A program made the translations under genes and the position numbers. The notes under the pieces were generated by a model. The model ran no database searches. It was given only the letters and a program-made list of their open reading frames with translations, and had not been told where the DNA came from. A stretch of 24,000 nt of DNA from contig NZ_VEWL01000001.1 in assembly GCF_006376685.1 (NCBI RefSeq), positions 351,869-375,868 on the forward strand, read 5' to 3'. Shown piece after piece: positions 2,814 through 21,055 of this stretch; position 1 is the stretch's first letter; the number at the start of each line of letters is the position of its first letter. The stretch is from Ochrobactrum teleogrylli. GTDB taxonomy: Bacteria > Pseudomonadota > Alphaproteobacteria > Rhizobiales > Rhizobiaceae.

Positions 2814-2825
2814 TTTGGCCCAATT

Positions 2826-2840
2826 TGACTGAAATTGTCA
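2826..2840. promoter_or_regulatory. TGA-N9-TCA element (TGACTGAAATTGTCA), an IRO/RirA-box-like site
   Basis: Matches the TGA-N9-TCA iron-responsive operator pattern described for rhizobial RirA regulons, with extended 4-bp inverted arms TGAC/GTCA. It lies 13 nt upstream of the AraC-family start codon. Confidence 0.3.
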
Positions 2841-2950
2841 TATTTAAATGGAATTGCAAAATTTTGACCCGAATGCAACCAAGATTGGCCTGACTCACCA
2901 AACTGTCCCGAATATATTCGCTCGCGCAACGCATTGATATGTGTGAGTAA

Positions 2951-2974
2951 ATTAGAATTATTCTGAATTCTGAA
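2951..2974. promoter_or_regulatory. ICE/Irr-box-like site ATTAGAA-TTA-TTCTGAA followed by a tandem TTCTGAA
   Basis: 12 of 14 match to the Iron Control Element consensus TTTAGAA-N3-TTCTAAA. The right half-site is directly duplicated (TTCTGAATTCTGAA, 2961-2974). It lies just upstream of a possible -35 TTGCGC, about 90 nt upstream of the receptor start. Confidence 0.4.
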
Positions 2975-3064
2975 CTTGCGCAACAATAAAAAATAATCGC
3001 TATAGCCGCTGCTTTGATGGGCTGCGGACAGTAGCCGTTTTGCAGGAACGGCAGGAGAACAGAG

Positions 3065-6138: not shown

Positions 6139-6163
6139 AAAGCCCCGGTTGAACCGGGGCTTT
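6139..6163. terminator. Bidirectional rho-independent terminator between convergent genes
   Basis: AAAGCCCCGG-ttgaa-CCGGGGCTTT perfect 10-bp stem. T-run on the plus strand (TTTGTTGTTT) and A-run on the other side. It lies between the binding-protein stop (6129) and the acoC-like stop (6170). Confidence 0.7.
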
Positions 6164-6169
6164 GTTGTT

Positions 6170-7531
6170 TCAGGCAACGGCGCGGATGCATTCGCCAAGA
6201 ATACGCAGTACTTCGGCGCGTTCCTCGATTTGCGGCATATGTCCGCAACGCTGGAAGATATGCACGCCGACTTTTCCGGGCAGCCCATGGGCGTGGCTGA
6301 CGGGAATGATCCGATCTTCCGCACCGAAGATCAGCCGCACAGGGATCGGCAATCCGGCTATGGTTGACCGCAGATCGAAGGTCTGCGTGCCATCGGTGAA
6401 GAACCGTTCCGCAATCGCGCTTTGCGCGGCGCGCAATTCGGTATCAGCGGCTTGGGCAACCGTGGCATTGATGAAAGGCCGCGTGAGCAGGCTTTCGTCG
6501 CTGACCAGCAGTTTCAGCCAAGGGATGATGCTCGCTTCGCTTTTGGCGGCGATCAGGCCCTTGGTGAAGGCGCCGTTGATTTCAGGGCCGAGACCGGCGG
6601 ACGAAATCAGCACCAGCGAGCGCACATCCACGATGCCGCGTGCGGCAACGGTCGCCGCAACGCCACCACCAAAGGAATGACCGCCAAGCACGCAGGCGTT
6701 CACGCCAACGGCGGCAAGTGTGGCTTCAACGGCCTCGGCGATCACATCGACGCTCTCCGGCACCGTGCGCGTGGAAGCACCGTGTCCGGGAAGGTCAAGC
6801 GCCAGAACCGGATGGCCGAGTGTTGCCCCTGCGAACAGGCCGCGCCATGAATTGAGGTCGGCGGCGAAACCGTGAATTAGGACAACAGGCAGTTTTCCGG
6901 CTTCACCCTCACGCAGCCAGACTGCATTGAGCGGTGCAGCGGAACCGGCGGTAGGTCTTCGTGCGGGGGGTGCAACCGGTTGGCTTACAGCGCCAGCCGC
7001 AACCGCAGCTTGGGCAGAGCCAATCTTCGCCTCGACATCCTTTTTCTGGACGCGTCCCTTGGGGCCGGAACCTGCAATCGCCTCAAGATCGATGCCAGCC
7101 TCCCGGGCCAGCCGGCGTGCAAGCGGCGTTGCACGCACGGCTGTGTCCTGAGCGGTAGCAGCTTGGGAGGTAGAAACGACCGGTTCGACAGGTGGGGGGC
7201 CATCCTCCCGAACCGGTACTGGCGCGCTCTGCGAGGGAGCAGGCTGCGCATCGGCGGGGCGCTCAACGGATGGTGGTGCTTTGCGCTCTTCGCCTTCTTC
7301 GTAAATCCACGCGACAGCCTGACCGACTGGCACAACAGTGCCCTCGGCGGCGCTCACATCTGCAAGAATGCCGCTGGCCGGTGCGTCCACTTCCATGGCC
7401 GCCTTGTCGGTTTCGATTTCGAACAGGAGCTGACCCTTCGTGACGGTATCGCCATCCTTGGCATACCAGCGCGAAATCTGGCCGGTCTCCATATCCATGT
7501 CGACTTTCGGCAGGATGACTTCCACTGCCAT
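6170..7531 (-). CDS. acoC: AcoC-type E2 component: lipoyl domain, E3-binding (PSBD) domain and alpha/beta-hydrolase domain
   Basis: Lipoyl domain [55 protein letters not shown]. The C-terminus is not a 2-oxoacid acyltransferase domain. It is an alpha/beta hydrolase ([13 protein letters not shown], nucleophile elbow GHSFGG, C-terminal GHMPQ), as in AcoC of acetoin dehydrogenase systems. Confidence 0.85.
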
Positions 7532-7533
7532 GG

Positions 7534-8532
7534 TCAGCGCACTCCCCTGGCAAGATCGCGGGCGCTTTTGAGAATGTCCGGCACCTGCGGCACGGTCGCG
7601 CGTTCAAGATCGGGATTGTAAGGGATCGGCGTCTCGGCGCCGCCAAGGCGGACAATCGGGGCGTCGAGATAATCGAAAGCATCGCTTTCGGCGACGATTG
7701 CAGAGATTTCCGCGCCGATGCCGAGTGTTTTCACAGCTTCATAGACGCAAAGCAGCTTCGAGGTTTTCTTGACGCTTCTGATGATCGTGTCGCGATCAAT
7801 TGGGCGCACGGTGCGCAGATCGATGACTTCGACGTCGATGCCTTCCTTGGCCAGTTCTGCCGCCGCATCCAGCGCCTTGTGCACCATAATTGCGGTCGCG
7901 ACGATGGTGAGATCACGGCCCTCGCGCACCACATCGGCCTTGCCGATGGGAACGGTATAATAGCCTTCCGGCACTGGCCCCTTCATCTTGTAGAGCAGCT
8001 TGTGCTCAAAAATCATCACCGGGTCGGGGTCTTCGACGGCTGCAAGCAACATGCCCTTGGCGTCATGCGGGGTGGAAGGCTGCAGGACCTTCAGGCCGGG
8101 CACATGGCCGAGCCAGGCTTCAAGGCTCTGGCTGTGCTGTGCGGCGGCGCCCGTGCCGGAACCGGCAGGAAAGCGCATGACCAGCGGCACCGAAACCGCG
8201 CCACCCAGCATATAGCGGATTTTTGCGGCCTGATTGACGATCTGCTCCATGGCGAGCGCAGCAAAATCGGAAAACTGGAATTCGAAAATCGGGCGCATGC
8301 CGGTCAGCGCTGCACCGACGGCGACGCCCGCACCGCCCAGTTCAGAAATCGGCGTGTCCATGACGCGGTCTTCGCCGAAGCGATGCACGAGATCGCCGGT
8401 TACCTGAAACGCGCCGCCATAGACGCCGATGTCCTCGCCCATCAGGAAAACACGGTCGTCGCGCTCCATGGCAATCGCCATGGCTTCCTGAATGGCTTGC
8501 GAATAGCTCAACTCGCGGATGGTGGTGTCCAT
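7534..8532 (-). CDS. acoB: Thiamine-diphosphate-dependent dehydrogenase E1 beta subunit (AcoB-like)
   Basis: 332 aa. Transketolase-like pyrimidine-binding and C-terminal domains ([31 protein letters not shown]). A 2-nt gap to both neighbours indicates an operon. Confidence 0.9.
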
Positions 8533-8534: not shown

Positions 8535-9569
8535 TCAGATTTCGTCCGTATATACGTCGCGGGTCAGATTGGTGAGGTCGGGAGAAGGGCTGTTGCGGGC
8601 ATACTCAATCGCGTCGGCGATTTCCTTCTCGACATTGGCCCGGATGGCTTCGATCTCGTTGTCGTCGATCACGCCATAAGCCTTCAGATCGGCCTCGAAA
8701 TGCGCGATGGGGTCGCGATTATTGGCCCAATCCTCGATCTCTTCCTTGGTGCGATAACGGTTGCGGTCGCTCTTGGAATGACCGCGAAGGCGATAGGTCT
8801 TGTTCTCGATCAGCGACGGGCCTTCCCCGCGCCGCGCACGCTCCACGGCCTCGTTGATGGCTTCGGCAACGTCGGAAAGGTTGTTGCCGTCCACGACCTT
8901 GCCGGGCATAGCATAGGCCGATGCGCGGTCCGCGACATTCACCACCGCCGTTGAACGCTTGGTTGAAGTAGACATGCCGTAGCCATTGTTTTCGCAAACG
9001 AAAACGACCGGCAACTTCCAGACGGAAGCCATGTTGAGCGCTTCATGGAAAGCGCCTTCATTGTTGGCGCCATCGCCGAAGAAGGACACAACAACCTTGT
9101 TGCTCTTCTGCTTCTTGGCGGAAAGCGCAGCACCCACTGCAATCGGAATGCCACCGCCGACAATGCCATTTGCGCCGAGATTGCCTTTGGATACATCAGC
9201 AATGTGCATGGAGCCGCCGCGACCCTTGCAATAGCCGGTTTCCTTGCCGAAGAACTCGGCAAACATGCGCTTCACATCGGCACCCTTGGCGATGCAATGA
9301 CCATGGCCGCGATGGGTAGAGGTGATCATGTCATCTTCGGTCAAAGGCAGGCAGGAACCCATGGCGCTTGCTTCCTGTCCGATGGACAGGTGCATCGTGC
9401 CGTGAATAAACCCCCGCGTGTAACTTTCTTCCGCGCCTTCTTCGAAGCGGCGGATGAGATACATCTTGTGCAGCGCTTCCTTCAGCTGTTCGGGAGAATA
9501 GGTGCGGAAAGCGAAGGGCAGGTTGTGGCGATCTGCGGCCTGCGCGTCAATCTTTCTGGCCTGAACCAT
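8535..9569 (-). CDS. acoA: Thiamine-diphosphate-dependent dehydrogenase E1 alpha subunit (AcoA-like)
   Basis: 344 aa. ThDP motif [43 protein letters not shown]. Immediately downstream of the COG4091 oxidoreductase gene. Confidence 0.9.
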
Positions 9570-9580
9570 GGTGCGGCTCC

Positions 9581-10900
9581 TTATGCTCCGTAAACGAGCT
9601 TGTCCTGGCGGGCGCGCAGTTCGGCGATCTTCGATCCCGGCGCGACGGCAGCATTGTCATAGGTGATGAGTTCGCCCTTCCTGATCGGCTTTGTCACGCT
9701 GCCGCCCTGAAGAAGACCGCAGGGGATGGCATGCGCTGTACGCGCTTCGCCAGACGTCATGATCCAGGCGCGGTAGCAATATTCGCCAATGGCATCGAGC
9801 TTTTCGCCCGGCTGCATATCCTTCTTGGCCACAGCGCAGACTTCGGCCACCGGCTTTGCCAGGGGCACCATGTCCGGCTTGCCGTAAAGCACGACACGGG
9901 CGCAGGTGAGGGGAACTTCGAGCGAGGTCAGGTGATAAGGGCGGTGGAAGGTGAAGTAAGGGCCTTTGCCCATTTTCAGATCTTCCATGCGTTCCGAAAC
10001 ACGCGGATGCGACATGTCGGCCACAACGAAGACGCCGGGCGCAACACCCTTGCCGATGGAGTAATCCACGACGCCGACTTTCGAAAGCACACCGCCGTCC
10101 TTTTCAGGAATCAGCGTCTTGTTGAGCTGGTCGAGCGTTGCGGCAGGGCCGTGCATGCCCGGCTTGTCCGGCACCAGACCCGTGGCATTGGCGATGGCTG
10201 CCATTTCCACCATGGTCTTGGAGCCATCGACGAACTCCACCAGCATACGCACATTCATGTTGCGGCGTTTGGCTTCTTCCAGATAATCGTCGGGAATGGC
10301 GTCGATATTGAGCGGGTTGTTCTTGCCCTTGCCAGCGGCAACGATGGGATGCCCCATGGCTGAAACGAACTCGATCAGTTCCATGCAGGACGATGGTTCG
10401 TCGCCGGCACCCAGCGAATAGGTGACGCCCAGACGGTCGGCTTCTGCCTTGAGGTAGGCACCGATGGTGACATCGGCTTCGACATTCATCATGACGAGAT
10501 GCTTGCCATGTTCCATGGCGCGCAGGCCGATTTCCGCGCCGACAGCCGGAACGCCGGTGGCGTCGATGACCACATCGATCAAATCATTTTCGAGGATCAG
10601 ACTGGCATTGTCCGTAACGGCGACCTTGCCGCCTTCCATGGCGGAGGTCAGGTCGGAAGCGTTTGAAACTTGCCTGCCGTGGCCTTCTTCCTGATAGGCG
10701 ATATCAACCGCTTTCAAAGCGTTCGGAACACGCAGTTCGGAAATGGCGCCGATTTCGATGCCGGGCATATGCGCCACGCGGGTCACGATGTCGGTGCCCA
10801 TTTCGCCGGAGCCGATCAGCCCGATACGGATCGGCCGTCCGCTGTCAGCACGCGCTTGCATATCACGTGCCAAGCCCGTCAACGCCACATTCGTCGCCAT
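9581..10900 (-). CDS. NAD(P)-dependent oxidoreductase of the COG4091 / homoserine-dehydrogenase-like plus SAF-domain family (DRL/DXR-II-type), 439 aa
   Basis: Rossmann motif IRIGLIGSGEMGTD near the N-terminus. GAGDEPSSCMELIEF and GKGKNNP motifs. A C-terminal SAF-like beta-clip (AVAKKDMQPGEKLD..., KPIRKGELITYDN). AGGAGG RBS. First gene of the operon. Its size and architecture match the family that contains Brucella abortus DRL. Orthology is not verified. Confidence 0.8.
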   Translation of the reverse strand: MATNVALTGLARDMQARADSGRPIRIGLIGSGEMGTDIVTRVAHMPGIEIGAISELRVPNALKAVDIAYQEEGHGRQVSNASDLTSAMEGGKVAVTDNASLILENDLIDVVIDATGVPAVGAEIGLRAMEHGKHLVMMNVEADVTIGAYLKAEADRLGVTYSLGAGDEPSSCMELIEFVSAMGHPIVAAGKGKNNPLNIDAIPDDYLEEAKRRNMNVRMLVEFVDGSKTMVEMAAIANATGLVPDKPGMHGPAATLDQLNKTLIPEKDGGVLSKVGVVDYSIGKGVAPGVFVVADMSHPRVSERMEDLKMGKGPYFTFHRPYHLTSLEVPLTCARVVLYGKPDMVPLAKPVAEVCAVAKKDMQPGEKLDAIGEYCYRAWIMTSGEARTAHAIPCGLLQGGSVTKPIRKGELITYDNAAVAPGSKIAELRARQDKLVYGA

Positions 10901-10958: not shown

Positions 10959-10970
10959 GAACATTTGTTT
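10959..10970 (-). promoter_or_regulatory. Shared operator-like motif, copy 1 (reads AAACAAATGTTC toward the DRL-like/aco operon)
   Basis: Exact 12-mer GAACATTTGTTT on the plus strand, 58 nt upstream of the start at 10900. In the minus orientation it sits 3 nt downstream of a -35-like TTGACT (10979-10974). The same 12-mer recurs at 11066-11077 and 20306-20317. Confidence 0.6.
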
Positions 10971-11064
10971 CCAAGTCAATACGAGTGTACATTTATCACG
11001 CGCCCCAGACCTGTTATTCCTTACCGTGCTTTATCGCTTGTGAACAAACATTGGTCTGCTATAA

Positions 11065-11079
11065 AAAACAAATGTTCTG
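11065..11079 (+). promoter_or_regulatory. Shared operator-like motif, copy 2 (AAAACAAATGTTCTG toward the gat-type PTS operon)
   Basis: This 15-mer is the exact reverse complement of 20304-20318. It lies 118 nt upstream of the IIC start at 11198. It forms an inverted pair with copy 1, about 107 bp centre to centre, in the divergent intergenic region. Confidence 0.6.
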
Positions 11080-11197: not shown

Positions 11198-12607
11198 ATG
11201 GACGCATTTCTAAGCGGCCTGAAATCGGCCATCGATACATTGGGAGCGACGGTCCTGCTCCCTATCGTCATTTTCATTATAGCCGTGGTTCTTGGCGCTA
11301 AGGTGGGCAAAGCCTTCCGCGCTGCCGTGACCATCGGCGTCGCCTTCATCGGTATCAACCTCGTATTGGGGCTGATGTTCACCTCCATTGGCGAGGTGGC
11401 TCAGGCGATTGTTACCAATACGGGCATCAAGCGCGATATCGTCGATGTGGGCTGGCCTTCGGCTGCGGCCATCGCTTTCGGTTCGTCCGTGGGGCTTTGG
11501 GTCATTCCGGTCGGCATTCTGGTCAACATCGCGCTGCTTTTGATGCGCTGGACCCGCACGCTCAATGTCGATGTTTGGAACTTCTGGCACTTTGCCTTTG
11601 TCGGCTCGCTTGTCGTCGCCGCAACGGACAATCTCGCCTATGGCATTATCGTTGCAGCTCTTGTTGCGGCTCTGTCGCTGCTGTTCGCTGACTGGTCGGC
11701 ACGCGCCGTACAGCAGTTCTATGGCGTTCCGGGCGTTTCCGTTCCGCATCTGGCATCGGCGCAAATTCTGCCGATTGCCATCGTGCTCAACTGGATCATG
11801 GATCGCATTCCTGGCATCAACAAGATCCACATCAGCACCGAAACCATCGAACGCCGTTTCGGCGTCTTCGGCGAGCCGGTGGTTCTGGGCCTGATTATCG
11901 GTCTCGTGCTTGGTCTCATCGCTTTCTACAATTCAGGCGATTTCGGCCATGTGCTGGCCAAGGTGCTGGGCACCGGCATGACGCTTGCCGCCGTGATGCT
12001 GCTTCTGCCGCGCATGGTCAAAATCCTGATGGAAGGCCTGCTGCCGGTTTCTGATGCCGCACAGGAATTCGTGCGCAAGCGCACCGGCGACCGCGAATTG
12101 CTGGTCGGTCTCGATTCGGCAATCCTGATCGGCCATCCGGCTGCGATCTCGTCGTCGCTGATCCTCGTGCCGATTGCGATCATCCTGTCGGTGATACTGC
12201 CGGGCAACCGCGTCATCCTGTTTGCCGATCTTGCGGTTATTCCGTTCATCGTCGCCATGACTGCGCCGCTGTTGAAGGGCAACGTGTTCCGCATGGTTGT
12301 CGTCGGCACGGTGACGCTCGCCATCGGCTTCTATGTGGCCAATGCGCTGGCTCCGCTCTTCACGAGCGCTGCCGTGTCATCTGGCTTCAAGTTGCCGGAA
12401 AACGCGTTGCAGATCACTTCGGTGGTCGACGGCTTCCTGTGGGTGCCTTATGTCATCATCGCCGCAATCCAGTGGTTAGGCGTTGTTGGAATCGCAGTTC
12501 TTGCAGTCGTCATCGCCGCAGCGTTCATTCTCTATCGTCGCAACACCGACGGTTGGGAACGCGCTGCCGGTGCGGAAGACGAACCAGCCGAGCAGAACAA
12601 CTGGTAA
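11198..12607 (+). CDS. PTS galactitol-family EIIC permease (GatC-like), 469 aa
   Basis: I chose the start ATG at 11198 (GGAGGA RBS 7 nt upstream). MDAFLSGLKSAIDTLGATVLLPIVIFI..., VDVGWP, NVDVWNFWHF, FGEPVVLG and GLDSAILIGHPA are collinear with E. coli GatC as I recall it. Multiple TM segments. The upstream 71 codons of the track ORF lack any RBS or homology. Confidence 0.88.
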   Translation: MDAFLSGLKSAIDTLGATVLLPIVIFIIAVVLGAKVGKAFRAAVTIGVAFIGINLVLGLMFTSIGEVAQAIVTNTGIKRDIVDVGWPSAAAIAFGSSVGLWVIPVGILVNIALLLMRWTRTLNVDVWNFWHFAFVGSLVVAATDNLAYGIIVAALVAALSLLFADWSARAVQQFYGVPGVSVPHLASAQILPIAIVLNWIMDRIPGINKIHISTETIERRFGVFGEPVVLGLIIGLVLGLIAFYNSGDFGHVLAKVLGTGMTLAAVMLLLPRMVKILMEGLLPVSDAAQEFVRKRTGDRELLVGLDSAILIGHPAAISSSLILVPIAIILSVILPGNRVILFADLAVIPFIVAMTAPLLKGNVFRMVVVGTVTLAIGFYVANALAPLFTSAAVSSGFKLPENALQITSVVDGFLWVPYVIIAAIQWLGVVGIAVLAVVIAAAFILYRRNTDGWERAAGAEDEPAEQNNW

Positions 12608-12670: not shown

Positions 12671-13132
12671 ATGGCGAACGGCCTGACGGCTTTTCTCGAC
12701 CCTGAAGCGATTGAGCTGCAGAGCGAGGCCAAAACCAATGAGGAAATTATCCGTATTCTGGCGGCGAAGCTGGAACGGCTCGGCTATGTAAAGCCCAGCT
12801 ATGCGGATGCGGTCGTGAAGCGGGAACAGACCATGCCAACCGGTCTGCCGCTGGAGCGCGAAGAAAACGTTGCCGTTCCGCATACCGACCCCGAGCATGT
12901 CCTGAAAGCGGGCATCGCTTTTGCGACGCTGAAAACCCCCGTCATCTTCGCCAATATGGAAGATCCGGAAGAGGACGTTCCCGTCGGATTTGTCTTCCTG
13001 CTTGCCATCAATGACAAGGACAAACAGATCGAGACCTTGCAACAGGTGATGGCGACCATTCAAAATGAGGACGCGCTCGAGAATCTCAAGAAATCGCGCA
13101 CATTGAGTGACGTGGAAGCTGCGCTCGGTTAA
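12671..13132 (+). CDS. PTS EIIA component, type 2 (GatA/mannitol-fructose family)
   Basis: About 153 aa from the ATG at 12671 (GGAGG 5 nt upstream). Candidate phosphorylatable His in NVAVPHTDPEHV. Length and layout are like GatA. The start is ambiguous (alternatives 12623, 12644, 12659). Confidence 0.8.
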   Translation: MANGLTAFLDPEAIELQSEAKTNEEIIRILAAKLERLGYVKPSYADAVVKREQTMPTGLPLEREENVAVPHTDPEHVLKAGIAFATLKTPVIFANMEDPEEDVPVGFVFLLAINDKDKQIETLQQVMATIQNEDALENLKKSRTLSDVEAALG

Positions 13133-13146: not shown

Positions 13147-13434
13147 ATGGCCAAAATGAAAACGATTCTCTTTGCCTGCGGCACCGGCGTCGCAACATCC
13201 ACTGCCGTGAATGCTGCCGTCACCGAAGAGATGAAAAAGCGCGGGCTGACCTTCAACGCCCAGCAGGCCAAGGCGACCGAAGTGCCGTCTCTGGCTGACA
13301 ATGTGGATTTCATCGTTTCCACGACGCCTATTTCCGCCGCAGTCGAGAAGCGGGTCATCAAGGGCCTCGCATTCCTGACCGGCATCGGCAAGGACAAGGT
13401 TCTGGACGAAATCGAAGCCGAATTGCGCAAGTAA
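13147..13434 (+). CDS. PTS EIIB component (GatB-like, Cys-phosphorylated)
   Basis: 95 aa. MAKMKTILFACGTGVATST contains the active-site Cys loop typical of GatB / lactose-family IIB. GGAGGA RBS upstream. Confidence 0.85.
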   Translation: MAKMKTILFACGTGVATSTAVNAAVTEEMKKRGLTFNAQQAKATEVPSLADNVDFIVSTTPISAAVEKRVIKGLAFLTGIGKDKVLDEIEAELRK

Positions 13435-13450: not shown

Positions 13451-13484
13451 AGGGCGCTTTCGTGCAGGATCACGAAAGCGCCCT
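13451..13484. terminator. Bidirectional terminator hairpin between the gat-type operon and the SorC-family gene
   Basis: Perfect 14-bp stem AGGGCGCTTTCGTG-caggat-CACGAAAGCGCCCT, followed by a T-rich tract on the plus strand. It lies between convergent stops at 13434 and 13514. Confidence 0.75.
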
Positions 13485-13513: not shown

Positions 13514-14548
13514 TCAGTTCGGAACGGAATGTCCGATGCGCCGGAGCATTTCGGCGGCACTTTCCTCGTCGGTGATGAACACCGTTGGACGCAGAAGTTT
13601 CATCGCGCCGAGAAGCGCTTCGATCTTTTCCTTGCCGCCGGATGTCAGGATGCGTTGCGGCGTGTTCTGCAAGCTTTCGATGCTGGCCGACATGACGCGC
13701 TCATGCACCGGATCATCGACGATACGGCCATCGGCATTGTAGAAATGGAACAGAACGTCGCCGACCGCACCATTGGCGCGCAGCGATTGTTTCTGCTCTT
13801 CATCGACGAGCCCCACGCGGTAGGACGTGCTGCTGGCGGTCTCGATGCCACCAATGCTGAGCAACACCATGTCGAGATCTTCCGCCATGTCCAGCACTGT
13901 GTTCAGGCCACAACGTTCAATCAGGGCTGTGCGAGTCTCCTTGCTGTCCACGAGGGCGGGCGCGGGGATAAGGTAGCCTTCGCCTTGCAGCATCTGCGCG
14001 AATTGCCAGGCAAATTCGGGCGGGTTGGAGCGTCGTGGCTGCACAATGCCGCCGAGAAGCGAAATGACCTTAAGATCGTTCACCGGACGCGAGCCGATAT
14101 GCTGCAAGGTGCTGGATAAAGTGCGGCCCCAGCCGACACCAATGCGCATGCCGTGCTGGATTTTTTCCGACAGATAAGCGCCGGTCGCAGCACTTATCGG
14201 AGGAATCGGATCGGTCTCGGCAGAGGAGAGGGGCGCGACAATGGCCTGTTCCAGCCTGAACGCCTTTTCAAGCGCCGCTTCCAGCGCGGTCAAAGCCGAA
14301 AGCTTACCTTCAATGGTGATCTTCACCTCGTTGCGGGCGCGGGCATCGGCAAGAAGACGCACAATGGTCACGCGGCCAACACCCAGCGCATCGGCAATAT
14401 CGCTCTGGGTCATCTGCTCGACATAATACATCCACGCCGCACGGGTTCTGAGGCGGCTGGTGCGGTTTTCCGCTGCAACGCCTTCGGAGCCCACCAGAAG
14501 GTCGTTGGTTTCAGCTGCGTTCCGTTTCCCCTTGGCGGTCTTTCTCAA
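13514..14548 (-). CDS. SorC/DeoR-type sugar-binding transcriptional regulator
   Basis: HTH region RAAWMYYVEQMTQSDIADALGVGRVTIVRLLADAR, followed by a SorC sugar-phosphate-binding domain (IGVGWGRTL, VISLLGG, VLLSIGG, GDVLFHFYN). TTG start at 14548 (GGGGA upstream). The start is uncertain. Confidence 0.85.
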   Translation of the reverse strand: MRKTAKGKRNAAETNDLLVGSEGVAAENRTSRLRTRAAWMYYVEQMTQSDIADALGVGRVTIVRLLADARARNEVKITIEGKLSALTALEAALEKAFRLEQAIVAPLSSAETDPIPPISAATGAYLSEKIQHGMRIGVGWGRTLSSTLQHIGSRPVNDLKVISLLGGIVQPRRSNPPEFAWQFAQMLQGEGYLIPAPALVDSKETRTALIERCGLNTVLDMAEDLDMVLLSIGGIETASSTSYRVGLVDEEQKQSLRANGAVGDVLFHFYNADGRIVDDPVHERVMSASIESLQNTPQRILTSGGKEKIEALLGAMKLLRPTVFITDEESAAEMLRRIGHSVPN

Positions 14549-14684: not shown

Positions 14685-15422
14685 ATGCTGCGCACACTTT
14701 CCGATGAAATCGCCGTCAATCTGAAAGACCGTCTGCGTGACGTGCGTTACGTGATCAGACGCGCCCGGCAAAGTTCGCGTGCGCCCGAAACCAGCCTGCC
14801 CGCACCGGAAGCGCTTCTGGGCCATGCCGCAGGCGTGATGGATACGGCGCTGACCGCCGCCGAGGCGATCTCAATCTCGATTATTTCGTCTGAACCGGCC
14901 AAACATCATGGCGCGCCACAGATGCGCAGCCTATCCTTTTATTTCGGCACCGGTGCGGAAGGTGCGCGCGGTTTCCGCAGCGATATGTATTATTTCCTCA
15001 AGGGAACGATGCGGCGCTACGGACTTGAAAACGCACTTATCCACGAAGCGGCTTTTTCGGTCATCCACGGGCGTCTGTTGCGCAAGCACGCGGAACTTCT
15101 GCGCGATCCTCGAAAGGTTGCACAGGCGCTGGCCGCGCTTTATCTGGAATATCTGGCTGAAAGCCCTGTCCGCTTGACGTCGTTGGAAGTCTCGTGCGAC
15201 CCGGAAAATCTGCGCAAGGCGGAAGTGGTCGGGCTTGCCGCTACTTGCCTCGCTTGCGGGCTGGCGACCGTAAAGCCTGCCGATCTCGCCGATATCGATC
15301 CGCTGGAAAGCGTGTTTATGGTGCTGGAAGCACGCTATGAACGGCTGGTGGATGCGGCAGAGACCCGCGACGCGAAGAAGCTCGAAACCCTCTTCGCGAC
15401 GCTGATTGCCCACCTACCTTAA
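14685..15422 (+). CDS. Hypothetical protein (245 aa), no family recognised
   Basis: ATG with AGGAGG upstream. Codon usage looks native. Mostly helical, with no TM segment or signal peptide seen. It is divergent from the SorC-family gene. Its 3' end overlaps the HPr-EI gene 3' end by 9 nt. Confidence 0.55.
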   Translation: MLRTLSDEIAVNLKDRLRDVRYVIRRARQSSRAPETSLPAPEALLGHAAGVMDTALTAAEAISISIISSEPAKHHGAPQMRSLSFYFGTGAEGARGFRSDMYYFLKGTMRRYGLENALIHEAAFSVIHGRLLRKHAELLRDPRKVAQALAALYLEYLAESPVRLTSLEVSCDPENLRKAEVVGLAATCLACGLATVKPADLADIDPLESVFMVLEARYERLVDAAETRDAKKLETLFATLIAHLP

Positions 15423-17414
15423 GTCGCCAAACAGATCGGCGATGATCTTCTTGGCGCGGGGAATGGAAGCCGGGCTCATGCTGAGCTCGGTCAGTCCCAT
15501 GCGGATAAATTCCGGGATCAAATCCGGCTTGCCTGCCGCTTCTCCGCACATGCCGACCATGATGCCCGCTGTCGTGGCTGCTTTCGCGGTCATTTCAATG
15601 GCCGCCATTACAGCTGGATGATGCACGTCGTTGAGCCTCGCGACCGTCGGGTTGAGACGGTCTGCCGCCATGACATATTGCGTCAGATCATTGGTGCCGA
15701 TGGAGAAGAAGGCGGATTCCTTGGCCAGCTGATCGGCTGCGAAAACCGCTGCCGGTGTTTCGATCATAACACCCAGTTCAAACGTGCCGTAAGGCTTGCC
15801 TTCTGCTGTCAACTCGCGCTCGCATTCGGCAATCAGGCTTTTTGTCGCCCGGATCTCCTCGATATCGGAAACCATCGGCAACATGACCTTCAGTTTGCCG
15901 TGCACTGAGGCGCGAAGCAGGGCGCGCAATTGCGGCTTAAACACCTCCGGGCGGTCAAGGCACATGCGGATGCCGCGCCAGCCGAGGAACGGGTTTTCCT
16001 CCTCGGGAAACTCGATGCCGGCGACGGGCTTGTCACCGCCGATATCGAGTGTGCGGACAATGACAGACTGGGGGGCGAAAGCGCGCAGAAGTGATGCATA
16101 GGTTTCCATCTGCATGTCTTCGGACGGCAAATGGATATGCTTCATGAACAGAAGCTCGGTGCGGAACAGGCCGACGCCCATCGCGCCTGCGGTCTGGGCC
16201 GCTTCGATTTCCTCCAAAGCGCCGAGATTGGCCGCAACCTCAATCACCACGCCATCGGCGCGGCGCGGCGTATAGTCACGATACTTGTCCAGCGCACGCT
16301 GTTCTTCCGTGGCCTTGGCAATGCGGCTTTCGATTTCGGCCAGAACGGTGGCATTCGGGTCGTGATGGACAATGCCCGCACTGCCATCGACGGCAACCTG
16401 TCGCGCTGTCTTCAGTCTATGAACAGCGTCGCCAAGTCCAAGCACTGCCGGGATTCCGTGCGTGCGCGCGATGATCGCGACATGCGAGGTCGCGCCGCCA
16501 TGGCCGCAAACCACGCCGCGAATGCGCTTCAGCGGTGCGCGGGCCAAGTCCCAAGCGCCGATGTCTTCGGCGATCAGAATGGCACCGTCCGGTAGTCCGT
16601 CGAGATTGAGGTCTTCCTGACCGAGCAAGGCGAGACAAATCTGGCGGCTGATTGCGTGCACATCGTCGGCGCGGGCATTGAGATAGGGATCGTCGAGGTT
16701 GGCGAATTGCTGCGCGACCGTCGAGGCAGCGCCGAGCGTTGCGGAGACCGCATCCATGCCGCCGCGAATAAGGGCGTGTGCTTCGTCCCGCAGGCTGTCG
16801 TCGGAGGCAATATCCTTCAATGCAGCAACGATGCCGCGATCACTTTCGGCGAGATCGTCGCGCGCGAGCGAATGTTCCATCCGCTCTTGAACAGTTGCGA
16901 CAGCGGCCTCGTAACGGCTGATTTCCGGTGCGATTTCGTGAGGTGCCAGCTTGCCGGTGCCGGGCGTGATTTCGGCAGGGAAAAACGGAAATGCCTCGCC
17001 AAGCGAAAGACCTTCACTGGCGGCAACGCCCTTGATCTGGCCTTCCGGCAACGCTGCAATCGCAACACTCGCGACCGGGGCGGTGACGGGAGCAGTCTCC
17101 ACCACCGCGGCAACGGCTGCGCCGTCATTTTCCTCAAGCCCCGCGCGCGGGTTTTCGAGATAGCCGATCAGCGCTTCCAGTGCTTCAATCGCGTCAGCCC
17201 CTTCGGCGCTGACGGTGACTTCGTCATTTTCCTTCACGCCAAGCAGCATGAGCTTAACGGAGCTTTTCGCGCTGACGCTTTTGCCGCTCTTTGCGATCTC
17301 GATATTACACTCGAACCCCTTGGCGAGCTTGACGAAACGAGTGGCGGGGCGCGCATGCAGCCCTTCATGCACCCGGACGATGGTGGAGCGTTCCATTTGA
17401 GAGCCTTGGATCAT
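15414..17414 (-). CDS. Fused HPr - Enzyme I (phosphoenolpyruvate-protein phosphotransferase), 666 aa
   Basis: N-terminal HPr domain (VHEGLHARPATRFV, GKSVSAKSSVKLMLLG). An Ala/Val-rich linker. Then EI with active-site GGATSHVAIIARTHGIPAV and C-terminal PEP-binding motifs FFSIGTNDLTQY and GMCGEAAG. The start is either 17414 or the ATG at 17396. Confidence 0.9.
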   Translation of the reverse strand: MIQGSQMERSTIVRVHEGLHARPATRFVKLAKGFECNIEIAKSGKSVSAKSSVKLMLLGVKENDEVTVSAEGADAIEALEALIGYLENPRAGLEENDGAAVAAVVETAPVTAPVASVAIAALPEGQIKGVAASEGLSLGEAFPFFPAEITPGTGKLAPHEIAPEISRYEAAVATVQERMEHSLARDDLAESDRGIVAALKDIASDDSLRDEAHALIRGGMDAVSATLGAASTVAQQFANLDDPYLNARADDVHAISRQICLALLGQEDLNLDGLPDGAILIAEDIGAWDLARAPLKRIRGVVCGHGGATSHVAIIARTHGIPAVLGLGDAVHRLKTARQVAVDGSAGIVHHDPNATVLAEIESRIAKATEEQRALDKYRDYTPRRADGVVIEVAANLGALEEIEAAQTAGAMGVGLFRTELLFMKHIHLPSEDMQMETYASLLRAFAPQSVIVRTLDIGGDKPVAGIEFPEEENPFLGWRGIRMCLDRPEVFKPQLRALLRASVHGKLKVMLPMVSDIEEIRATKSLIAECERELTAEGKPYGTFELGVMIETPAAVFAADQLAKESAFFSIGTNDLTQYVMAADRLNPTVARLNDVHHPAVMAAIEMTAKAATTAGIMVGMCGEAAGKPDLIPEFIRMGLTELSMSPASIPRAKKIIADLFGDLR

Positions 17415-17429
17415 GAATGCTTCTTGAGA

Positions 17430-17810
17430 TCAGTCGCTGATGACGATCATATGTCCTTCGCGCAGAACGGCAACCAAAGCGGCGCCGTCAACTTCGCTGG
17501 CACAGATTTCGCCCGGACGGTCGGTCGAGTCGGCCCCGGTAAACGATATCACCACATGGCCGATGTCACGCACTTTCTGCCAGGCGCTTGCTCCAACAGC
17601 GGTAATGTTTGCCGTTATGTCGCCAATGGTGATGAGCGCGCCAACCGGCGGCGCAGCTTCCTGCGGACCGTCTTCGACTGCATGCATCACCGAGACTTCC
17701 GCGAGTTCGGGCGGAGAGCCCTCTGCAAACAGGATCAGAACGCCGCCTTCGGCGAGATCAGCCACTTCGGGACCAATTGCGGTGATCCGTGTCTTGAGAT
17801 GTATCGGCAT
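17430..17810 (-). CDS. srlB: PTS glucitol/sorbitol-family EIIA (SrlB-like)
   Basis: MPIHLKTRITAIGPEVADLAEGGVLILFAEGSPPELAEVSVMH... is collinear with E. coli SrlB (MTVIYQTTITRIG...). I chose the ATG at 17810 (AAAGGA RBS) over the GTG at 17834 on the basis of homology. Confidence 0.85.
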   Translation of the reverse strand: MPIHLKTRITAIGPEVADLAEGGVLILFAEGSPPELAEVSVMHAVEDGPQEAAPPVGALITIGDITANITAVGASAWQKVRDIGHVVISFTGADSTDRPGEICASEVDGAALVAVLREGHMIVISD

Positions 17811-17839
17811 GGCGGCAGTCCTTTTCAATTTCACTCAAT

Positions 17840-17876
17840 CGGCATCCTCCAAAAATTGGGGAGATGAGGATGCCGA
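17840..17876 (-). other. Intercistronic stem-loop between srlE and srlB
   Basis: 10-bp perfect arms CGGCATCCTC / GAGGATGCCG with a 17-nt loop, inside the 127-nt srlE-srlB spacer. Confidence 0.35.
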
Positions 17877-17937
17877 AAATTAAAGGCAGAGATTGGGAGG
17901 AGCGGCCCGCCGCTTTGATGCGACGAGCCAGTTTGCG

Positions 17938-18942
17938 TCAAAGCACGGCGAGGCTGACGAGCCAGGCGATGAGCACCGAGACAGGGCCCATGATCTGGCG
18001 GCTGATCAGGATCGCAGGCACGCCGATTTCAATCGTCTTCGGTTTGGCTTCACCGAGCGCCAGACCCACTGGCACGAAGTCGCAACCGACCTGCGTGTTA
18101 TAGGCGAAGAGCGCGGGCAGGGCCATTGCCGGAGCGATGGTGCCATTGGCAATCTGCGGGCCGATAATGGCCACACCCACTACCTGCGCGATGACTGCGC
18201 CCGGTCCAAGGATCGGAGAAAGAAACGGCAAGCCGCAGATAGCCGACAGCACAAGCAGGCCAATGATATTGTTGGCGAGTGGTCCCATCGGCTGGGCAAG
18301 AATATCGCCGATGCCGGTGTAAAGAATGAGACCGATCAGCATCGTCACGAAAGCCATGAATGGCAGAACGTTGCGGATGACCTGATCGATGGTGCGGCGA
18401 CCGGCGTTGAAGAAAATGCCGACGACACGGCCCATGACGCGGCCGATCCGGCTGATCAGCCCGACAAGGCCGCCATCATTCGATGTATCGATTGGCGCTG
18501 CTGGCTTTTCGTCGGCCTTTGGGGCTGCGGCTGCAAAGGACGCGGTGGCGGCAGGAGCCTCGGAGCCATCGGCAGGAACGACATTTTCGGGCTTCACGCC
18601 GGAGACATAAATGTCTTCGGTAATAAACTGCGCAAGCGGGCCGGACTGGCCCACGGGCGTGAGATTGACGGTCGGGATGCGCTTGCGCGGATAGACGCCG
18701 CAACGGGCGGTGCCGCCGCAATCGACCACGACGACAGCCATTTCGCTTTCAATGGGCGGAGCGCGGAAACCGTCTACGGCTTCGCCTCCGGTCATTTCCG
18801 CGATCTGTCTGGCGAGCGGATGGATGCCGCCGCCGGTCACGGATACGATCTTGCTACGCTGTTCGGTGGGCTGGATGACAAGCGGTCCGCCCCAGCCACC
18901 GGAGCCGTGGGAAATTCTAACGGATTTGTAGGTTTTGGCCAT
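17938..18942 (-). CDS. srlE: PTS glucitol/sorbitol-family EIIBC (SrlE-like), 334 aa
   Basis: SHGSGGWGGPL, VVDCGGTARCGVYPRKRIPTVN, SGPLAQFITEDIYVSGVK, ILPFMAFV and LSPILGPGAVIAQV are collinear with E. coli SrlE. GGGAGG RBS. Confidence 0.9.
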   Translation of the reverse strand: MAKTYKSVRISHGSGGWGGPLVIQPTEQRSKIVSVTGGGIHPLARQIAEMTGGEAVDGFRAPPIESEMAVVVVDCGGTARCGVYPRKRIPTVNLTPVGQSGPLAQFITEDIYVSGVKPENVVPADGSEAPAATASFAAAAPKADEKPAAPIDTSNDGGLVGLISRIGRVMGRVVGIFFNAGRRTIDQVIRNVLPFMAFVTMLIGLILYTGIGDILAQPMGPLANNIIGLLVLSAICGLPFLSPILGPGAVIAQVVGVAIIGPQIANGTIAPAMALPALFAYNTQVGCDFVPVGLALGEAKPKTIEIGVPAILISRQIMGPVSVLIAWLVSLAVL

Positions 18943-18960
18943 GATGTCCTCCCGCGCGCC

Positions 18961-19737
18961 TTAAAGCTCGATGCCCTGACGGCGCGCCATGATGGCGGTG
19001 ATGCGTTCGGTGAGCATGCCTTTGAGCAGGATCACGACGAGGCCGACGATGGCGTACCAGATGGCCACATTGATGTGATAGCCATTGGCGACAGCGCCTT
19101 TCTTTTCCAGTTCAAGCAGCGCCACGAGTACGCCACCCCAGACGAAATATTCGCCGGGATTGATATGCGGGAAGAGGCCAAGTGGCGGATGCACATAGGA
19201 CACTGCCGCGTCGTAAAAGGCAGGCTTGTGCTTTTCCTCAAGGAACGAACCGAAGGTATAGGCCATCGGATTGGTCAGGAAGAACACCGACAGCACCGGC
19301 AGAACCGTATAACGGGTTAGCGCGATGCGGCCCGCCCCCTGTGCCAAACCGTGCACGCGCTTTTCGCCGACGAGTTCGGTGATTGCGTAGAAGGCGGTCA
19401 TCAGAACCACCAGGGTCGGAATGATGCCGGTCACGAAACCGGAAAACACTTCGCCACCCTTTTGGAAAATACCGATGAAGTGCTTGCCGATCGAGGCCAG
19501 CCAGCCCAGCTGTTCTTCCTGCGTGACGTTTTGCAGTCGTTCCTTGAACTGATCGACAGTCAGATTGTCCGTGCCGGTTGCCTGTGCAAGTTGCACAAGG
19601 TTATCGCTACCGTGTTCGACGGCTAGCTTGCCGTGAAACACCGCGTCCGTTGCTATGTTGGCGGCCATCTGGCTCGCCACATGCAAGGACTGTAAGGTCG
19701 TATCGGCGCCTTGCGCCAGCATTGCAGCTATAGACAT
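18961..19737 (-). CDS. srlA: PTS glucitol/sorbitol-family EIIC (SrlA-like) with an extra N-terminal region of about 75 aa
   Basis: The C-terminal ~180 aa (FIGIFQKGGEVFSGFVTGIIP..., LFPHINPGEYF) match E. coli SrlA end to end. I chose the start ATG at 19737 with a strong GGAGGAGGAG RBS, the same RBS as gutM. No in-frame ATG lies near the SrlA-homologous start. Confidence 0.85.
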   Translation of the reverse strand: MSIAAMLAQGADTTLQSLHVASQMAANIATDAVFHGKLAVEHGSDNLVQLAQATGTDNLTVDQFKERLQNVTQEEQLGWLASIGKHFIGIFQKGGEVFSGFVTGIIPTLVVLMTAFYAITELVGEKRVHGLAQGAGRIALTRYTVLPVLSVFFLTNPMAYTFGSFLEEKHKPAFYDAAVSYVHPPLGLFPHINPGEYFVWGGVLVALLELEKKGAVANGYHINVAIWYAIVGLVVILLKGMLTERITAIMARRQGIEL

Positions 19738-19813
19738 TTCTCCTCCTCCACGCCCGTCCTCGTCGGGCGATACCCCTTGAACATTGCCACCCAGTTCACG
19801 GTTGGACACACGC

Positions 19814-20242
19814 TCAGGCGTGCGCCAGCTTCAGTCCTTCGAGAGACGTGCCGTCGGATTGTTCGCGGATGCGGTCGATCTGGTCCATCGCCTGCTTTGC
19901 GGCAGCATTGACAGGTGACTTTTCGAGCGCTTCCTGTTCACGCCGCAAGGCATTGAGCGGCATGCCCTCATAGGCTTCCTGCCGCTTGAACTTCGCGAAC
20001 ACGGTTCGTCCGCTCATTTCGAGAAAGCGCCGGACCTTCAGGTCGCGGTCAACCACGATCATGACAATGACGCCTTTGCCGAAGCGCCCGCGTACATGGC
20101 CTGCACCCACGAATCCGTCAGAGTAGCGGGATGTGACGCCTTTCAGCACGTCGGAGTAATGGCGCATCTGAAACCAGACGCCCAGCGACTGGACCCCCCA
20201 TAAAAGAGCCAAAGCCAGTAAAGCCCATTGCCAGATAGCCAT
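19814..20242 (-). CDS. gutM: GutM-like glucitol operon activator (142 aa)
   Basis: N-terminal TM helix MAIWQWALLALALLWGV. Then VGAGHVRGRFGKGVIVMIVVD...LEMSGRTVFAKF, which matches the GutM pattern of E. coli (GRSSGRF...VVV...MKGLTVFA). ATG at 20242 with a GGAGGAGGAG RBS. Confidence 0.75.
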   Translation of the reverse strand: MAIWQWALLALALLWGVQSLGVWFQMRHYSDVLKGVTSRYSDGFVGAGHVRGRFGKGVIVMIVVDRDLKVRRFLEMSGRTVFAKFKRQEAYEGMPLNALRREQEALEKSPVNAAAKQAMDQIDRIREQSDGTSLEGLKLAHA

Positions 20243-20303: not shown

Positions 20304-20318
20304 CAGAACATTTGTTTT
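20304..20318 (-). promoter_or_regulatory. Shared operator-like motif, copy 3 (reads AAAACAAATGTTCTG toward gutM-srlAEB-HPr/EI)
   Basis: CAGAACATTTGTTTT on the plus strand is the exact reverse complement of 11065-11079. It lies 61 nt upstream of the gutM ATG. In the minus orientation it sits 6 nt downstream of a perfect -35 hexamer TTGACA (20330-20325), so it overlaps the promoter spacer and -10 region. Confidence 0.6.
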
Positions 20319-20422
20319 CTTAAATGTCAATATGTATAATTATGAGGTGAAGATTGCGGGAAGGACAAGCTGACAACGGTAGCGGTTTCGCATATGGTCT
20401 GTCGGCATTGGAGGCGTGGAAT

Positions 20423-21055
20423 ATGGATTTGCTTTTGAAGAACCAGATGACATCGATGCCGGACTTGCGGCGTCGCTTGCGGCAGTTGCGCTGGTTCAGG
20501 GCGACGTTTCGCAAACACGCCAGTCTTCTCCATGATGTCTATGGTGTCGATTATGAGATCGACGAGCAGAAACTGACGGAAGCTTTTCTGAACTGGGTAG
20601 AACTGGTCGAGCAGAACAAGCGTTATGCCAAGGTGGACCGCAAGGATTTCATCACCTTTGCCGCCGGGCTGGTTCTGCGTGAACTGATCCGCCTGTCGCC
20701 TGCCCGGGGGTTATTGATCCCGAAGGCGAACGAGGGCGAGAATACGCCGCAACACGACATTATCGCCTTCTGGCCGGAGGGGTTCCTCTATACCAATTAC
20801 TGCATTTGCGCGATTGCCGCCGTGCAGGAGCAGGAATTCGGCGTGGCACAGGATATCGACGCCTGTGCGGACGATTTGCGAACCTGGTGGTCTTACCGGG
20901 AAAACGTGGCCGACATGCCGGGCTATGCGATAGCCTTCCTCGACAAGTTTCTGGGTGGCGAGCCGAACTGGGTCATGCCCGATCTCGCCTCGGCCCGCGT
21001 GGCGGTGCAAAGGGCGCTCGGCGCGCAAAATCCGTCAGGCGCGATAAAGGGTTAG
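20423..21055 (+). CDS. Hypothetical protein (210 aa), no family recognised
   Basis: I chose the ATG at 20423 (GGAGG 8 nt upstream). MDLLLKNQMTSMPDLRRRLRQLRWF... No TM segment or signal peptide seen. It is divergent from gutM and convergent with acvB. Confidence 0.55.
   Translation: MDLLLKNQMTSMPDLRRRLRQLRWFRATFRKHASLLHDVYGVDYEIDEQKLTEAFLNWVELVEQNKRYAKVDRKDFITFAAGLVLRELIRLSPARGLLIPKANEGENTPQHDIIAFWPEGFLYTNYCICAIAAVQEQEFGVAQDIDACADDLRTWWSYRENVADMPGYAIAFLDKFLGGEPNWVMPDLASARVAVQRALGAQNPSGAIKG

Follow-up and report, generated by a model that had tools for sequence, protein, structure and literature searches.

The window analysed here is a 24,000-nucleotide stretch of the genome of Ochrobactrum teleogrylli (RefSeq assembly GCF_006376685.1, contig NZ_VEWL01000001.1, positions 351,869 to 375,868 of the forward strand). 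It contains a gene for a DXR-II protein, or DRL, a member of a family of reductoisomerases of DXP (1-deoxy-D-xylulose 5-phosphate). The gene heads an operon that continues with the two subunits of a thiamine diphosphate (ThDP)-dependent E1 enzyme and an AcoC-type E2 (Table 1). A phosphotransferase system (PTS) of the galactitol (GAT) family, consisting of IIC, IIA and IIB, is transcribed divergently from DRL, and a full PTS of the glucitol (GUT) family with GutM and a fusion of HPr and Enzyme I (HPr-EI) spans positions 15414..20242. The window DRL is not the orthologue of the well-studied Brucella protein but a distinct paralogue, which is called type 2 in the following. We propose, as a reading with about an even chance of being correct, that type-2 DXR-II belongs to a repressor-controlled catabolic regulon for 2-C-methyl-D-erythritol (ME), in which ME 4-phosphate (MEP) would be converted to DXP and then to acetyl-CoA and glyceraldehyde-3-phosphate (GAP).

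Two types of DXR-II genes

The open reading frame (ORF) of DRL is 1320 nt long, runs from ATG to TAA on the minus strand, and encodes 439 residues. Residues 27–35 have the sequence GLIGSGEMG, with the GxGxxG motif at positions 30–35. In a Pfam search, PF21135 (DRL_cat) matches residues 166–329 at 6e-68, NAD_binding_3 is also above its cut-off, and the C-terminal SAF match is borderline, with 20.6 bits against a cut-off of 21. The three-domain build of Rossmann, DRL catalytic and SAF-like domains is present, with the SAF-like part borderline; an NCBIfam search assigns no family to the protein. The closest solved structure is that of Brucella abortus DRL (3UPL/3UPY; E = 3e-218), to which residues 1–435 align without gaps at 75–78% identity. 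The two proteins share family and fold, and the residues K191, K193 and T229, which anchor the substrate and fosmidomycin, are all kept in the window DRL with the same numbering. The dimer residues E174, F178, R320 and Y322 and the clade-specific residues G121, H250 and V351 are kept as well. The same DRL gene call is found on nine contigs in public databases, from genomes similar to that of Brucella (Ochrobactrum) haematophila. A 625-residue protein from a 6.8-kb contig of the Joint Genome Institute (P0002) scores near the best DRL matches but aligns over only 82% of the query and could be either a fusion protein or an artefact of gene calling.

The family survey of Carretero-Paulet et al. 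(2013) divides the family into a DXR-II clade and the sister clades DLO1 and DLO2. In the same survey, 11 DXR-II members complement an Escherichia coli dxr mutant, all 11 with results being functional, whereas the tested members of DLO1 and DLO2 fail to do so; genomic context is not among its topics. Species-representative genomes were scanned once for DRL, which detected at least 593 DXR-II loci, and 80 alphaproteobacterial loci were examined and annotated with a panel of 26 query proteins. The window DRL falls inside the alphaproteobacterial DXR-II group in a neighbour-joining tree from which the DLO sequences were left out.

The original prediction, which had been made from the letters of the window, described a 439-residue protein with an N-terminal GLIGSGEMG Rossmann fold and a C-terminal SAF-like module, and placed it in the DRL family. 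The ORF and the Pfam matches bear out the description, with the SAF module at the borderline, and the family assignment is upheld by PF21135, the match to 3UPL/3UPY and the conserved key residues. The neighbour-joining tree, a phylogeny of the kind that the prediction had called for, places the protein inside the alphaproteobacterial DXR-II group. By contrast, the claim that Brucella DRL is the only biochemically defined member fails, given the 11 complementing proteins. The further claim that many family members lack the activity is correct for DLO1 and DLO2 but wrong for the DXR-II clade, to which the window protein belongs.

In the neighbour-joining tree, the Brucella DRL groups with stand-alone copies from Ochrobactrum, and the window DRL is part of a much larger clade. 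The Brucella-like copy, type 1, is monocistronic and is flanked by the gene of a HAD hydrolase and by pntAB. It thus has a housekeeping setting that differs from that of the window gene, which heads an operator-controlled operon. The genome of Brucella (Ochrobactrum) tritici contains both types; type-2 genes share 95% identity with the window gene. According to the literature, O. anthropi has two DXR-II paralogues, both described as functional. The published gene of its paralogue “(2)” has 1320 nt and a codon-position GC profile of 65.68/42.5/60/56.06; the type-2 gene of B. tritici has 1320 nt and a profile of 65.0/42.7/60.5/56.06. Gene length and GC profile suggest that paralogue “(2)” is the orthologue of the window gene. 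O. anthropi and Mesorhizobium lack DXR-I. S. fredii NGR234 has DXR-I, yet it also carries a type-2 operon, and active DXR-II is described from organisms in which the MEP pathway is reportedly missing. The expectation that the Brucella DRL would adjoin acoABC is ruled out, because the Brucella-type copy is monocistronic and its Ochrobactrum orthologues stand alone. The NCBI label of the Brucella-type paralogue (P0271 and relatives) is “1-deoxy-D-ribulose 5-phosphate reductoisomerase”, with an odd substrate name, and the operon-linked paralogue is labelled only as “NAD(P)H-dependent oxidoreductase” or “homoserine dehydrogenase”.

The two types differ at the predicted cofactor site. Residue 55 is positioned 20 residues after the glycine-rich loop and directly after strand β2, which comprises residues 48–54 in an AlphaFold2 (AF2) model with a local predicted confidence (pLDDT) of about 86. 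The model was calculated from a shallow alignment and has a pLDDT below 50 in the catalytic domain; only its N-terminal secondary structure was used. Residues 55–57 of the window DRL are Glu-Leu-Arg. A Glu or Asp occupies position 55 in all 64 DRLs that are linked to E1, a GUT PTS or both, including those of Firmicutes and metagenomes. By contrast, the Brucella DRL and five stand-alone orthologues have Ala55 followed by Arg-Arg, as in Brucella, or Leu-Arg, and in other stand-alone DRLs a Thr, Ser or Asn precedes basic residues. An acidic residue after β2 of a Rossmann fold is the classical NAD signature. Since residue 55 is acidic in one group and Ala in the other, the Rossmann-fold rule is suggestive of NAD(H) use by the operon-linked DRLs and of NADP(H) use by the biosynthetic ones; Glu-Leu-Arg in place of Ala-Arg-Arg predicts NAD rather than NADP for the window protein.

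An operator-controlled operon conserved across families

The E1alpha gene follows DRL on the minus strand after a gap of 11 nt, as had been predicted, and the gaps between E1alpha and E1beta and between E1beta and E2 are 2 nt each. E1alpha scores 387.6 on TIGR03182, just below the cut-off of 393.85, and its closest solved structure is human pyruvate dehydrogenase (PDH) E1alpha. The E1 models that match are of the PDH type, from a model library that has no entry specific for AcoA. The E2 scores 433 on NF011457, the model of acetoin dehydrogenase E2, against a cut-off of 307, and carries the lipoyl-lysine motif ETDKA and the nucleophile motif GHSFG. The complex resembles AcoA/AcoB/AcoC(/AcoL) in its heteromeric ThDP-dependent E1 and in an E2 composed of lipoyl, E3-binding and α/β-hydrolase domains. 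It differs from acetoin dehydrogenase systems in being coupled to DRL and to modules for phosphorylated substrates; acoR, acoX and acoL are lacking, and no AcoR, AcoX, AcoL/E3 or butanediol dehydrogenase was found among the called genes of the window.

Another difference from acetoin dehydrogenase is that the AcoC-type E2 is exchanged for a canonical acyltransferase E2 in many orthologous operons (for example at 15364-16665 of locus L005, in the place of 6170-7531 in the window). Of 41 loci whose sequence is long enough for the comparison, 14 carry an AcoC-type E2 and 26 a canonical one. The swap of the catalytic domain indicates that the conserved function is the lipoyl-dependent formation of an acyl-CoA. 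Genes for LpdA and for the lipoyl synthase LipA often accompany the canonical E2 and are present only in the Rhizobiaceae versions of the operon. A genuine acetoin/2,3-butanediol operon in which DRL takes the place of butanediol dehydrogenase is scarcely credible against this background. In its favour, the window E2 passes the NCBIfam equivalog model for acetoin dehydrogenase E2, and classical aco operons often carry a diol dehydrogenase. However, the use of acetoin or butanediol requires no PTS and no kinase, the missing acoR, acoX and acoL and the canonical E2 of many orthologous operons do not fit, and DRL keeps K191, K193 and T229, which anchor a phosphate.

The 11-mer AACAAATGTTC occurs in three exact copies in the window, a number reached in 0 of 100 shuffles. 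Copies 1 and 2 form a perfect 12-nt inverted repeat in the divergent region between DRL and the GAT genes. The hexamer TTGAC(A/T), 4 nt upstream of the operator, is conserved in 30 loci from several families, and the operator is located 47 to 90 nt before the ATG of DRL across genera. The operator in the DRL promoter is present in Ochrobactrum, Phyllobacterium, Terrarubrum, Agrobacterium, Sinorhizobium, Shinella, Ensifer and Bosea, and Chelativorans and Nitratireductor have a variant form of it. In Phyllobacterium, Mesorhizobium and Shinella, the AACAAATGTTC motif also precedes gutM. The motif is absent from stand-alone DRL genes, from Paracoccus versutus and from the distant contigs L094 and L099; the operator is confined to Hyphomicrobiales. 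A generic promoter scan missed the DRL promoter, which emerged only from the comparison of loci.

An operator inside a promoter is a hallmark of a repressible catabolic operon. The presumed binding protein of the operator is the neighbouring SorC-family protein, which has sub-threshold matches to the models of Bacillus subtilis DeoR and LsrR and co-occurs with the DRL cluster in other genera. The common operator at the DRL and PTS promoters supports the predicted co-regulation of DRL with the PTS permeases.

E1alpha lies directly 3′ of DRL in 58 of the 77 species loci with enough downstream sequence, with gaps mostly of −4 to about 50 nt. The linkage persists at 57% DRL identity in Terrarubrum and at 52% in P. 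versutus, where E1alpha is 75% and E1beta 83% identical. Two metagenomic contigs (46% and 44% DRL identity) have GUT PTS, DRL and E1 genes overlapping on one strand. Type-2 operons are also carried by accessory plasmids, in 33 records at an identity of at least 80%. This distribution bears on the explanation that the window gene is an ordinary biosynthetic DXR-II that merely lies beside an unrelated acetoin dehydrogenase operon and a PTS island. The lack of DXR-I in O. anthropi speaks for it, as do the E1-linked copies without the operator in Mesorhizobium, another host without DXR-I. It is nevertheless very improbable: Ochrobactrum species possess a further copy, of the Brucella type, in a housekeeping context, the linkage is conserved across families together with the short gaps and the operator, with the linkage reaching down to 44% identity, and the operons occur on plasmids and in DXR-I hosts.

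The uptake genes that accompany the E1-linked clusters vary. One type is a GUT PTS module with its own HPr-EI. A GAT PTS module belongs only to the Ochrobactrum versions of the cluster. Another type combines a CUT1 ABC transporter with a PfkB kinase, and its binding protein is closest to solved polyol binders; NCBIfam gives no family for this kinase or for the binding protein. In Mesorhizobium and Aquamicrobium, DRL-E1-E2 is followed by an ABC transporter (positions 15020-18846 of L021 from M. sangaii; also L029, L031, L032 and L040). The binding protein of the Mesorhizobium transporter is closest to AfuA, which binds sugar phosphates (4R72-75), and to a protein that binds pyridoxal phosphate (6WCE). 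These Mesorhizobium and Aquamicrobium loci have neither a kinase nor a PTS nearby, and therefore the substrate may enter already phosphorylated. A GUT PTS, GAT PTS, CUT1 ABC transporter or PfkB kinase is present at 27 of the 35 E1-linked loci with full flanks. By contrast, the GUT PTS and the CUT1 ABC transporter are absent from all 19 stand-alone loci, of which one has a PfkB kinase. The variable modules would all deliver a phosphorylated substrate into one downstream route. The original prediction had regarded the gene context as catabolic rather than isoprenoid-related, a view that has gained strong support, because the context is conserved across families, its uptake modules differ yet supply a phosphorylated substrate, and its operator is shared.

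Many DRL-E1 operons are adjoined by genes of a GlpD-like FAD dehydrogenase, a Zn-dependent alcohol dehydrogenase (Zn-ADH), PfkB and a second SorC regulator, such as at 19345-23686 of L005 and at L009, L038, L053, L065, L073, L074 and other loci; this module may provide another way into the pathway or handle a related substrate. The wider DRL family is found in several other sugar clusters. In L096 (9001-12114), two tandem DRL-family genes with 39% identity follow an ABC transporter and a gene of the phosphotriesterase family, and in L092 a relative with 47% identity follows genes of an FGGY kinase, an SIS protein and a Zn-ADH.

A proposed route from methylerythritol to acetyl-CoA

DXP is a methyl-ketone acyloin, like acetoin, and could therefore be cleaved by an acetoin-dehydrogenase-like E1. 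In the proposed route, the PTS of the cluster, with HPr-EI and permeases of the GUT family, the GAT family or both, would import ME and phosphorylate it to MEP. DRL would run the DXR reaction backwards, from MEP to DXP, probably with NAD+. The E1alpha/beta enzyme would then split the C2-C3 bond of DXP in the same way as acetoin dehydrogenase splits acetoin, releasing GAP and loading the hydroxyethyl group onto the E2 lipoyl arm. The AcoC-type E2 would hand the acetyl group to CoA, and a housekeeping dihydrolipoyl dehydrogenase would reoxidise the lipoamide, so that the net products would be acetyl-CoA and GAP. The SorC regulator would hold the DRL, GAT and GUT promoters shut through the common operator until a phosphorylated intermediate builds up. 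The membership of the window protein in the DXR-II family, the paralogy, the gene linkage, the operator and the cofactor-site signature are observed; the substrate, the direction of DRL, the cleavage of DXP by E1 and the identity of the regulator are what we infer from them.

ME is proposed as the substrate because, among the natural precursors of MEP, it alone requires both a transporter and phosphorylation. Several published observations agree with individual steps. The title of Testa et al. (2004) reports that the sorbitol PTS carries ME into Salmonella, and that of Yokota and Sasajima (1986) that acetoin and pyruvate dehydrogenases form 1-deoxyketoses. A mutant PDH E1 is reported to be able to supply DXP in E. 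coli in vivo, and ME, ME-glucosides and exported 2-C-methyl-D-erythritol 2,4-cyclodiphosphate (MEcDP) are described from plants and bacteria. By our own reasoning, DXP synthase (DXS) and the complex proposed here would together amount to the pyruvate dehydrogenase reaction, and therefore leakage of DXP would cost nothing.

The original prediction had allowed two readings: DRL working in the catabolic direction and feeding an acyloin to E1, or a paralogue acting on a different polyol phosphate. The first is favoured, since the DXR-II residues are kept and the O. anthropi orthologue is reported to be functional, and the second is less likely for the same reasons. In its full form, the second reading makes DRL a plain dehydrogenase whose substrate is some other polyol phosphate supplied by the PTS (for example sorbitol-6-phosphate, a tetritol phosphate or a 1-deoxy-hexitol phosphate), with E1/E2 cleaving the resulting keto-sugar phosphate. 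The GUT and GAT families of PTS are named after hexitols, Firmicute DRLs take the place of sorbitol-6-phosphate dehydrogenase in gut-like operons without SrlD, relatives with 39–47% identity are part of other sugar clusters (FGGY-SIS-ADH and ABC-lactonase), and the module of PfkB, Zn-ADH and GlpD-like genes lies beside many clusters. Nevertheless, this alternative is unlikely. All DXR-II-specific residues are kept, a close orthologue is reported to complement dxr, and a reaction as elaborate as that of DXR cannot be a chance by-activity throughout a clade in which 11 of 11 reported sequences are functional. In addition, the cleavage of tetrulose or hexulose phosphates gives products that are not central metabolites. 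The variant in which DRL substitutes for sorbitol-6-phosphate dehydrogenase in this operon is rejected, because conversion of sorbitol-6-phosphate to fructose-6-phosphate makes the conserved E1/E2/E3 complex pointless; for Firmicutes such a role is possible.

DXP is the node common to DRL and the E1/E2 complex, and gene order alone is silent on the direction of flux. The regulon could instead use 1-deoxy-D-xylulose, with a PTS or kinase making DXP, E1/E2 burning it, and DRL working forward to divert a part to MEP and isoprenoids, the direction in which a DRL orthologue is reported to work in E. coli. We consider this arrangement improbable. It would make DRL dispensable for catabolism, yet DRL leads the operon, in tight coupling, at 58 of 77 loci, DXR-I hosts and plasmids included. 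The NAD-type signature fits an oxidative role, and polyols rather than ketoses are the substrates of GUT PTS systems and of the closest solved binding proteins.

Several points weigh against the proposed catabolism of ME. The choice of ME is deduced from the known DXR-II reaction and from chemical logic. For DXR-I, the equilibrium of the DXR reaction favours MEP, and therefore reverse flux would need the pull of an irreversible cleavage. The E1 sequence has revealed no fit to a phosphorylated substrate. Some stand-alone DRLs keep Glu55, and the rule that an acidic residue confers a preference for NAD has exceptions. The operons of Listeria, L. salivarius and E. raffinosus, composed of SorC, DRL, GutM and GUT PTS genes and devoid of E1/E2, are left unexplained by the route as stated, and a hexitol-phosphate role is possible for their DRLs. 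The E1-linked DRL of Mesorhizobium, which lacks the operator and resides in a host without DXR-I, may serve biosynthesis as well as catabolism. Hyp1, hyp2 and the second PTS of Ochrobactrum have no assigned role in the proposed pathway. The conversion of DXP to MEP by O. anthropi “(2)”, seen as dxr complementation, and the transport of ME are both taken from citing papers rather than from the primary ones. A full-text literature search returned nothing on the catabolism of methylerythritol, on a combination of DXR-II with acetoin dehydrogenase or this gene linkage, or on the function of lmo0546.

The route can be compared with three known systems, in addition to acetoin dehydrogenase, with which it would share the conversion of a methyl-ketone acyloin to acetyl-CoA and an aldehyde. 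The substrate would be DXP and not acetoin, as suggested by the context of PTS or kinase and DRL. The enterobacterial gut/srl operon has the same GUT-family IIC, IIBC and IIA components and GutM. By contrast, the window cluster has neither SrlD nor GutQ (a short-chain sorbitol-6-phosphate dehydrogenase of the SrlD type was not found among the genes of the island), includes HPr-EI and a SorC-type regulator, and has DRL and the E1/E2 complex in place of a single dehydrogenase step. The Lsr pathway for autoinducer-2 (LsrK, LsrG, LsrF and LsrR) is an analogy only, although the regulator here has its sub-threshold match to LsrR. In that pathway, cells import a 1-deoxy compound of five carbons and phosphorylate it; isomerisation and cleavage to acetyl-CoA and a triose phosphate follow, and a SorC-family repressor senses the phosphorylated intermediate. 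However, the Lsr enzymes are unrelated, the cleavage is of the thiolase type and yields dihydroxyacetone phosphate, and neither a ThDP/lipoyl complex nor DRL takes part. DXS and the DXP-making variants of PDH E1 act on the same C2-C3 bond in the opposite direction, through the same hydroxyethyl-ThDP intermediate. DXS consists of a single chain and works as a non-oxidative, decarboxylating synthase, whereas the two-subunit E1 with a lipoyl E2 would cleave oxidatively.

So far, DXR-II has been known in two roles only, as an enzyme that replaces DXR in isoprenoid synthesis and as a Brucella drug target, and its patchy distribution has been without explanation. With slightly less than even confidence, we suggest that DXR-II is at its root a catabolic, NAD+-linked, isomerising MEP dehydrogenase that works with a dedicated ThDP/lipoyl “DXP dehydrogenase complex” and that plasmids have spread the pathway to soil bacteria and to bacteria associated with plants. 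In Brucella and Bartonella, the biosynthetic DRL would be a later recruit from the catabolic enzyme with a switch to NADPH. If this is true, the catabolic origin explains active DXR-II in bacteria that have DXR-I or lack the MEP pathway. If the route exists, it provides for the degradation of methylerythritol, which is accumulated by plants, partly as glucosides, and is derived from MEcDP exported by plants and bacteria, and it adds a new class of substrates for acetoin-dehydrogenase-like complexes. The labels “acetoin dehydrogenase” and “NAD(P)H-dependent oxidoreductase” would then probably be misleading for hundreds of genomes and plasmids of Rhizobiales.

Other genes and features of the window

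The positions of the operon, the operator copies and the surrounding genes are collected in Table 1.

Table 1 Features of the 24,000-nucleotide window, in the order of their positions
Feature	Position	Strand	Evidence or remark
GC-rich hairpin, terminator-like operon end	6139..6163	unstranded	between convergent genes, 6 nt past the E2 stop
AcoC-type E2	6170..7531	minus	Biotin_lipoyl, E3_binding, Abhydrolase; NF011457
E1 beta	7534..8532	minus	Transket_pyr and Transketolase_C; NF006667 401 vs cut-off 321
TPP-dependent E1 alpha	8535..9569	minus	PF00676 2.6e-91; GDG...NN ThDP motif
DRL-E1alpha spacer, 11 nt, GGAGCCGCACC	9570..9580	minus	GGAG ribosome-binding site for E1alpha
DXR-II/DRL oxidoreductase (type 2), operon gene 1	9581..10900	minus	ORF, 3UPL/3UPY match, PF21135
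Operator copy 1, AACAAATGTTC	10959..10969	minus	in promoter spacer, 69 nt before DRL ATG
-35-like hexamer TTGACT of DRL promoter	10974..10979	minus	TTGAC(A/T) conserved
Operator copy 2	11067..11077	plus	faces GAT-PTS genes
PTS EIIC, galactitol (GAT) family	11198..12607	plus	PF03611 2.4e-86; TIGR00827 440, below cut-off 542
PTS EIIA (type 2), GAT set	12671..13132	plus	PF00359
PTS EIIB, GAT set	13147..13434	plus	PF02302
Strong terminator 3′ of EIIB	13451..13484		
SorC/DeoR-family regulator (sugar-phosphate-sensing)	13514..14548	minus	PF04198 4e-58
hyp2-like conserved protein	14685..15422	plus	weak homology to second hypothetical gene of Agrobacterium cluster
HPr-Enzyme I fusion	15414..17396	minus	TIGR01417 475 vs cut-off 342; HPr domain
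PTS EIIA, glucitol (GUT) family	17430..17810	minus	PF03829; TIGR00849 sub-threshold
PTS EIIBC, GUT family (SrlE-like)	17938..18942	minus	NF049924 453 vs cut-off 400
PTS EIIC, GUT family (SrlA-like)	18961..19737	minus	NF049923 184 vs cut-off 150
GutM-like activator	19814..20242	minus	PF06923; NF007592 sub-threshold
Operator copy 3	20306..20316	minus	upstream of gutM, 8 nt after TTGACA (20325..20330)
hyp1 conserved protein	20423..21055	plus	divergent from gutM; AF2 model all-alpha, pLDDT 78

The conserved proteins hyp1 and hyp2 accompany the E1-linked DRL clusters in the PTS and ABC versions alike. The gene of hyp1 is present at 21 of the 35 E1-linked loci with full flanks and is missing from all 19 stand-alone loci. 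About 500 proteins in the database belong to the hyp1 family, and its named matches are from Rhizobiales. A Pfam search gives no match for hyp1 or for the hyp2-like protein. A search for homologues of hyp1 returns only hypothetical proteins, and its AF2 model has no fold match in the PDB better than E = 1.6.

The HPr-EI fusion and the GUT and GAT permeases constitute a self-contained sugar PTS in an alphaproteobacterium; to our knowledge, alphaproteobacteria usually have no sugar PTS permeases. A siderophore-uptake unit (2058-6129) adjoins the operon. It comprises a TonB-dependent receptor (3065-5269), a regulator of the AraC family and a periplasmic binding protein (5215-6129); antisense to the receptor gene run long ORFs (2747-4108 and 4214-5281), which look like high-GC artefacts. 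On the minus strand at 21078-23995, an AcvB/VirJ-like gene overlaps an MprF/LpiA-like gene of a lysyl-phosphatidylglycerol synthase, both named by reading their translations; the pair is typical of Rhizobiales.

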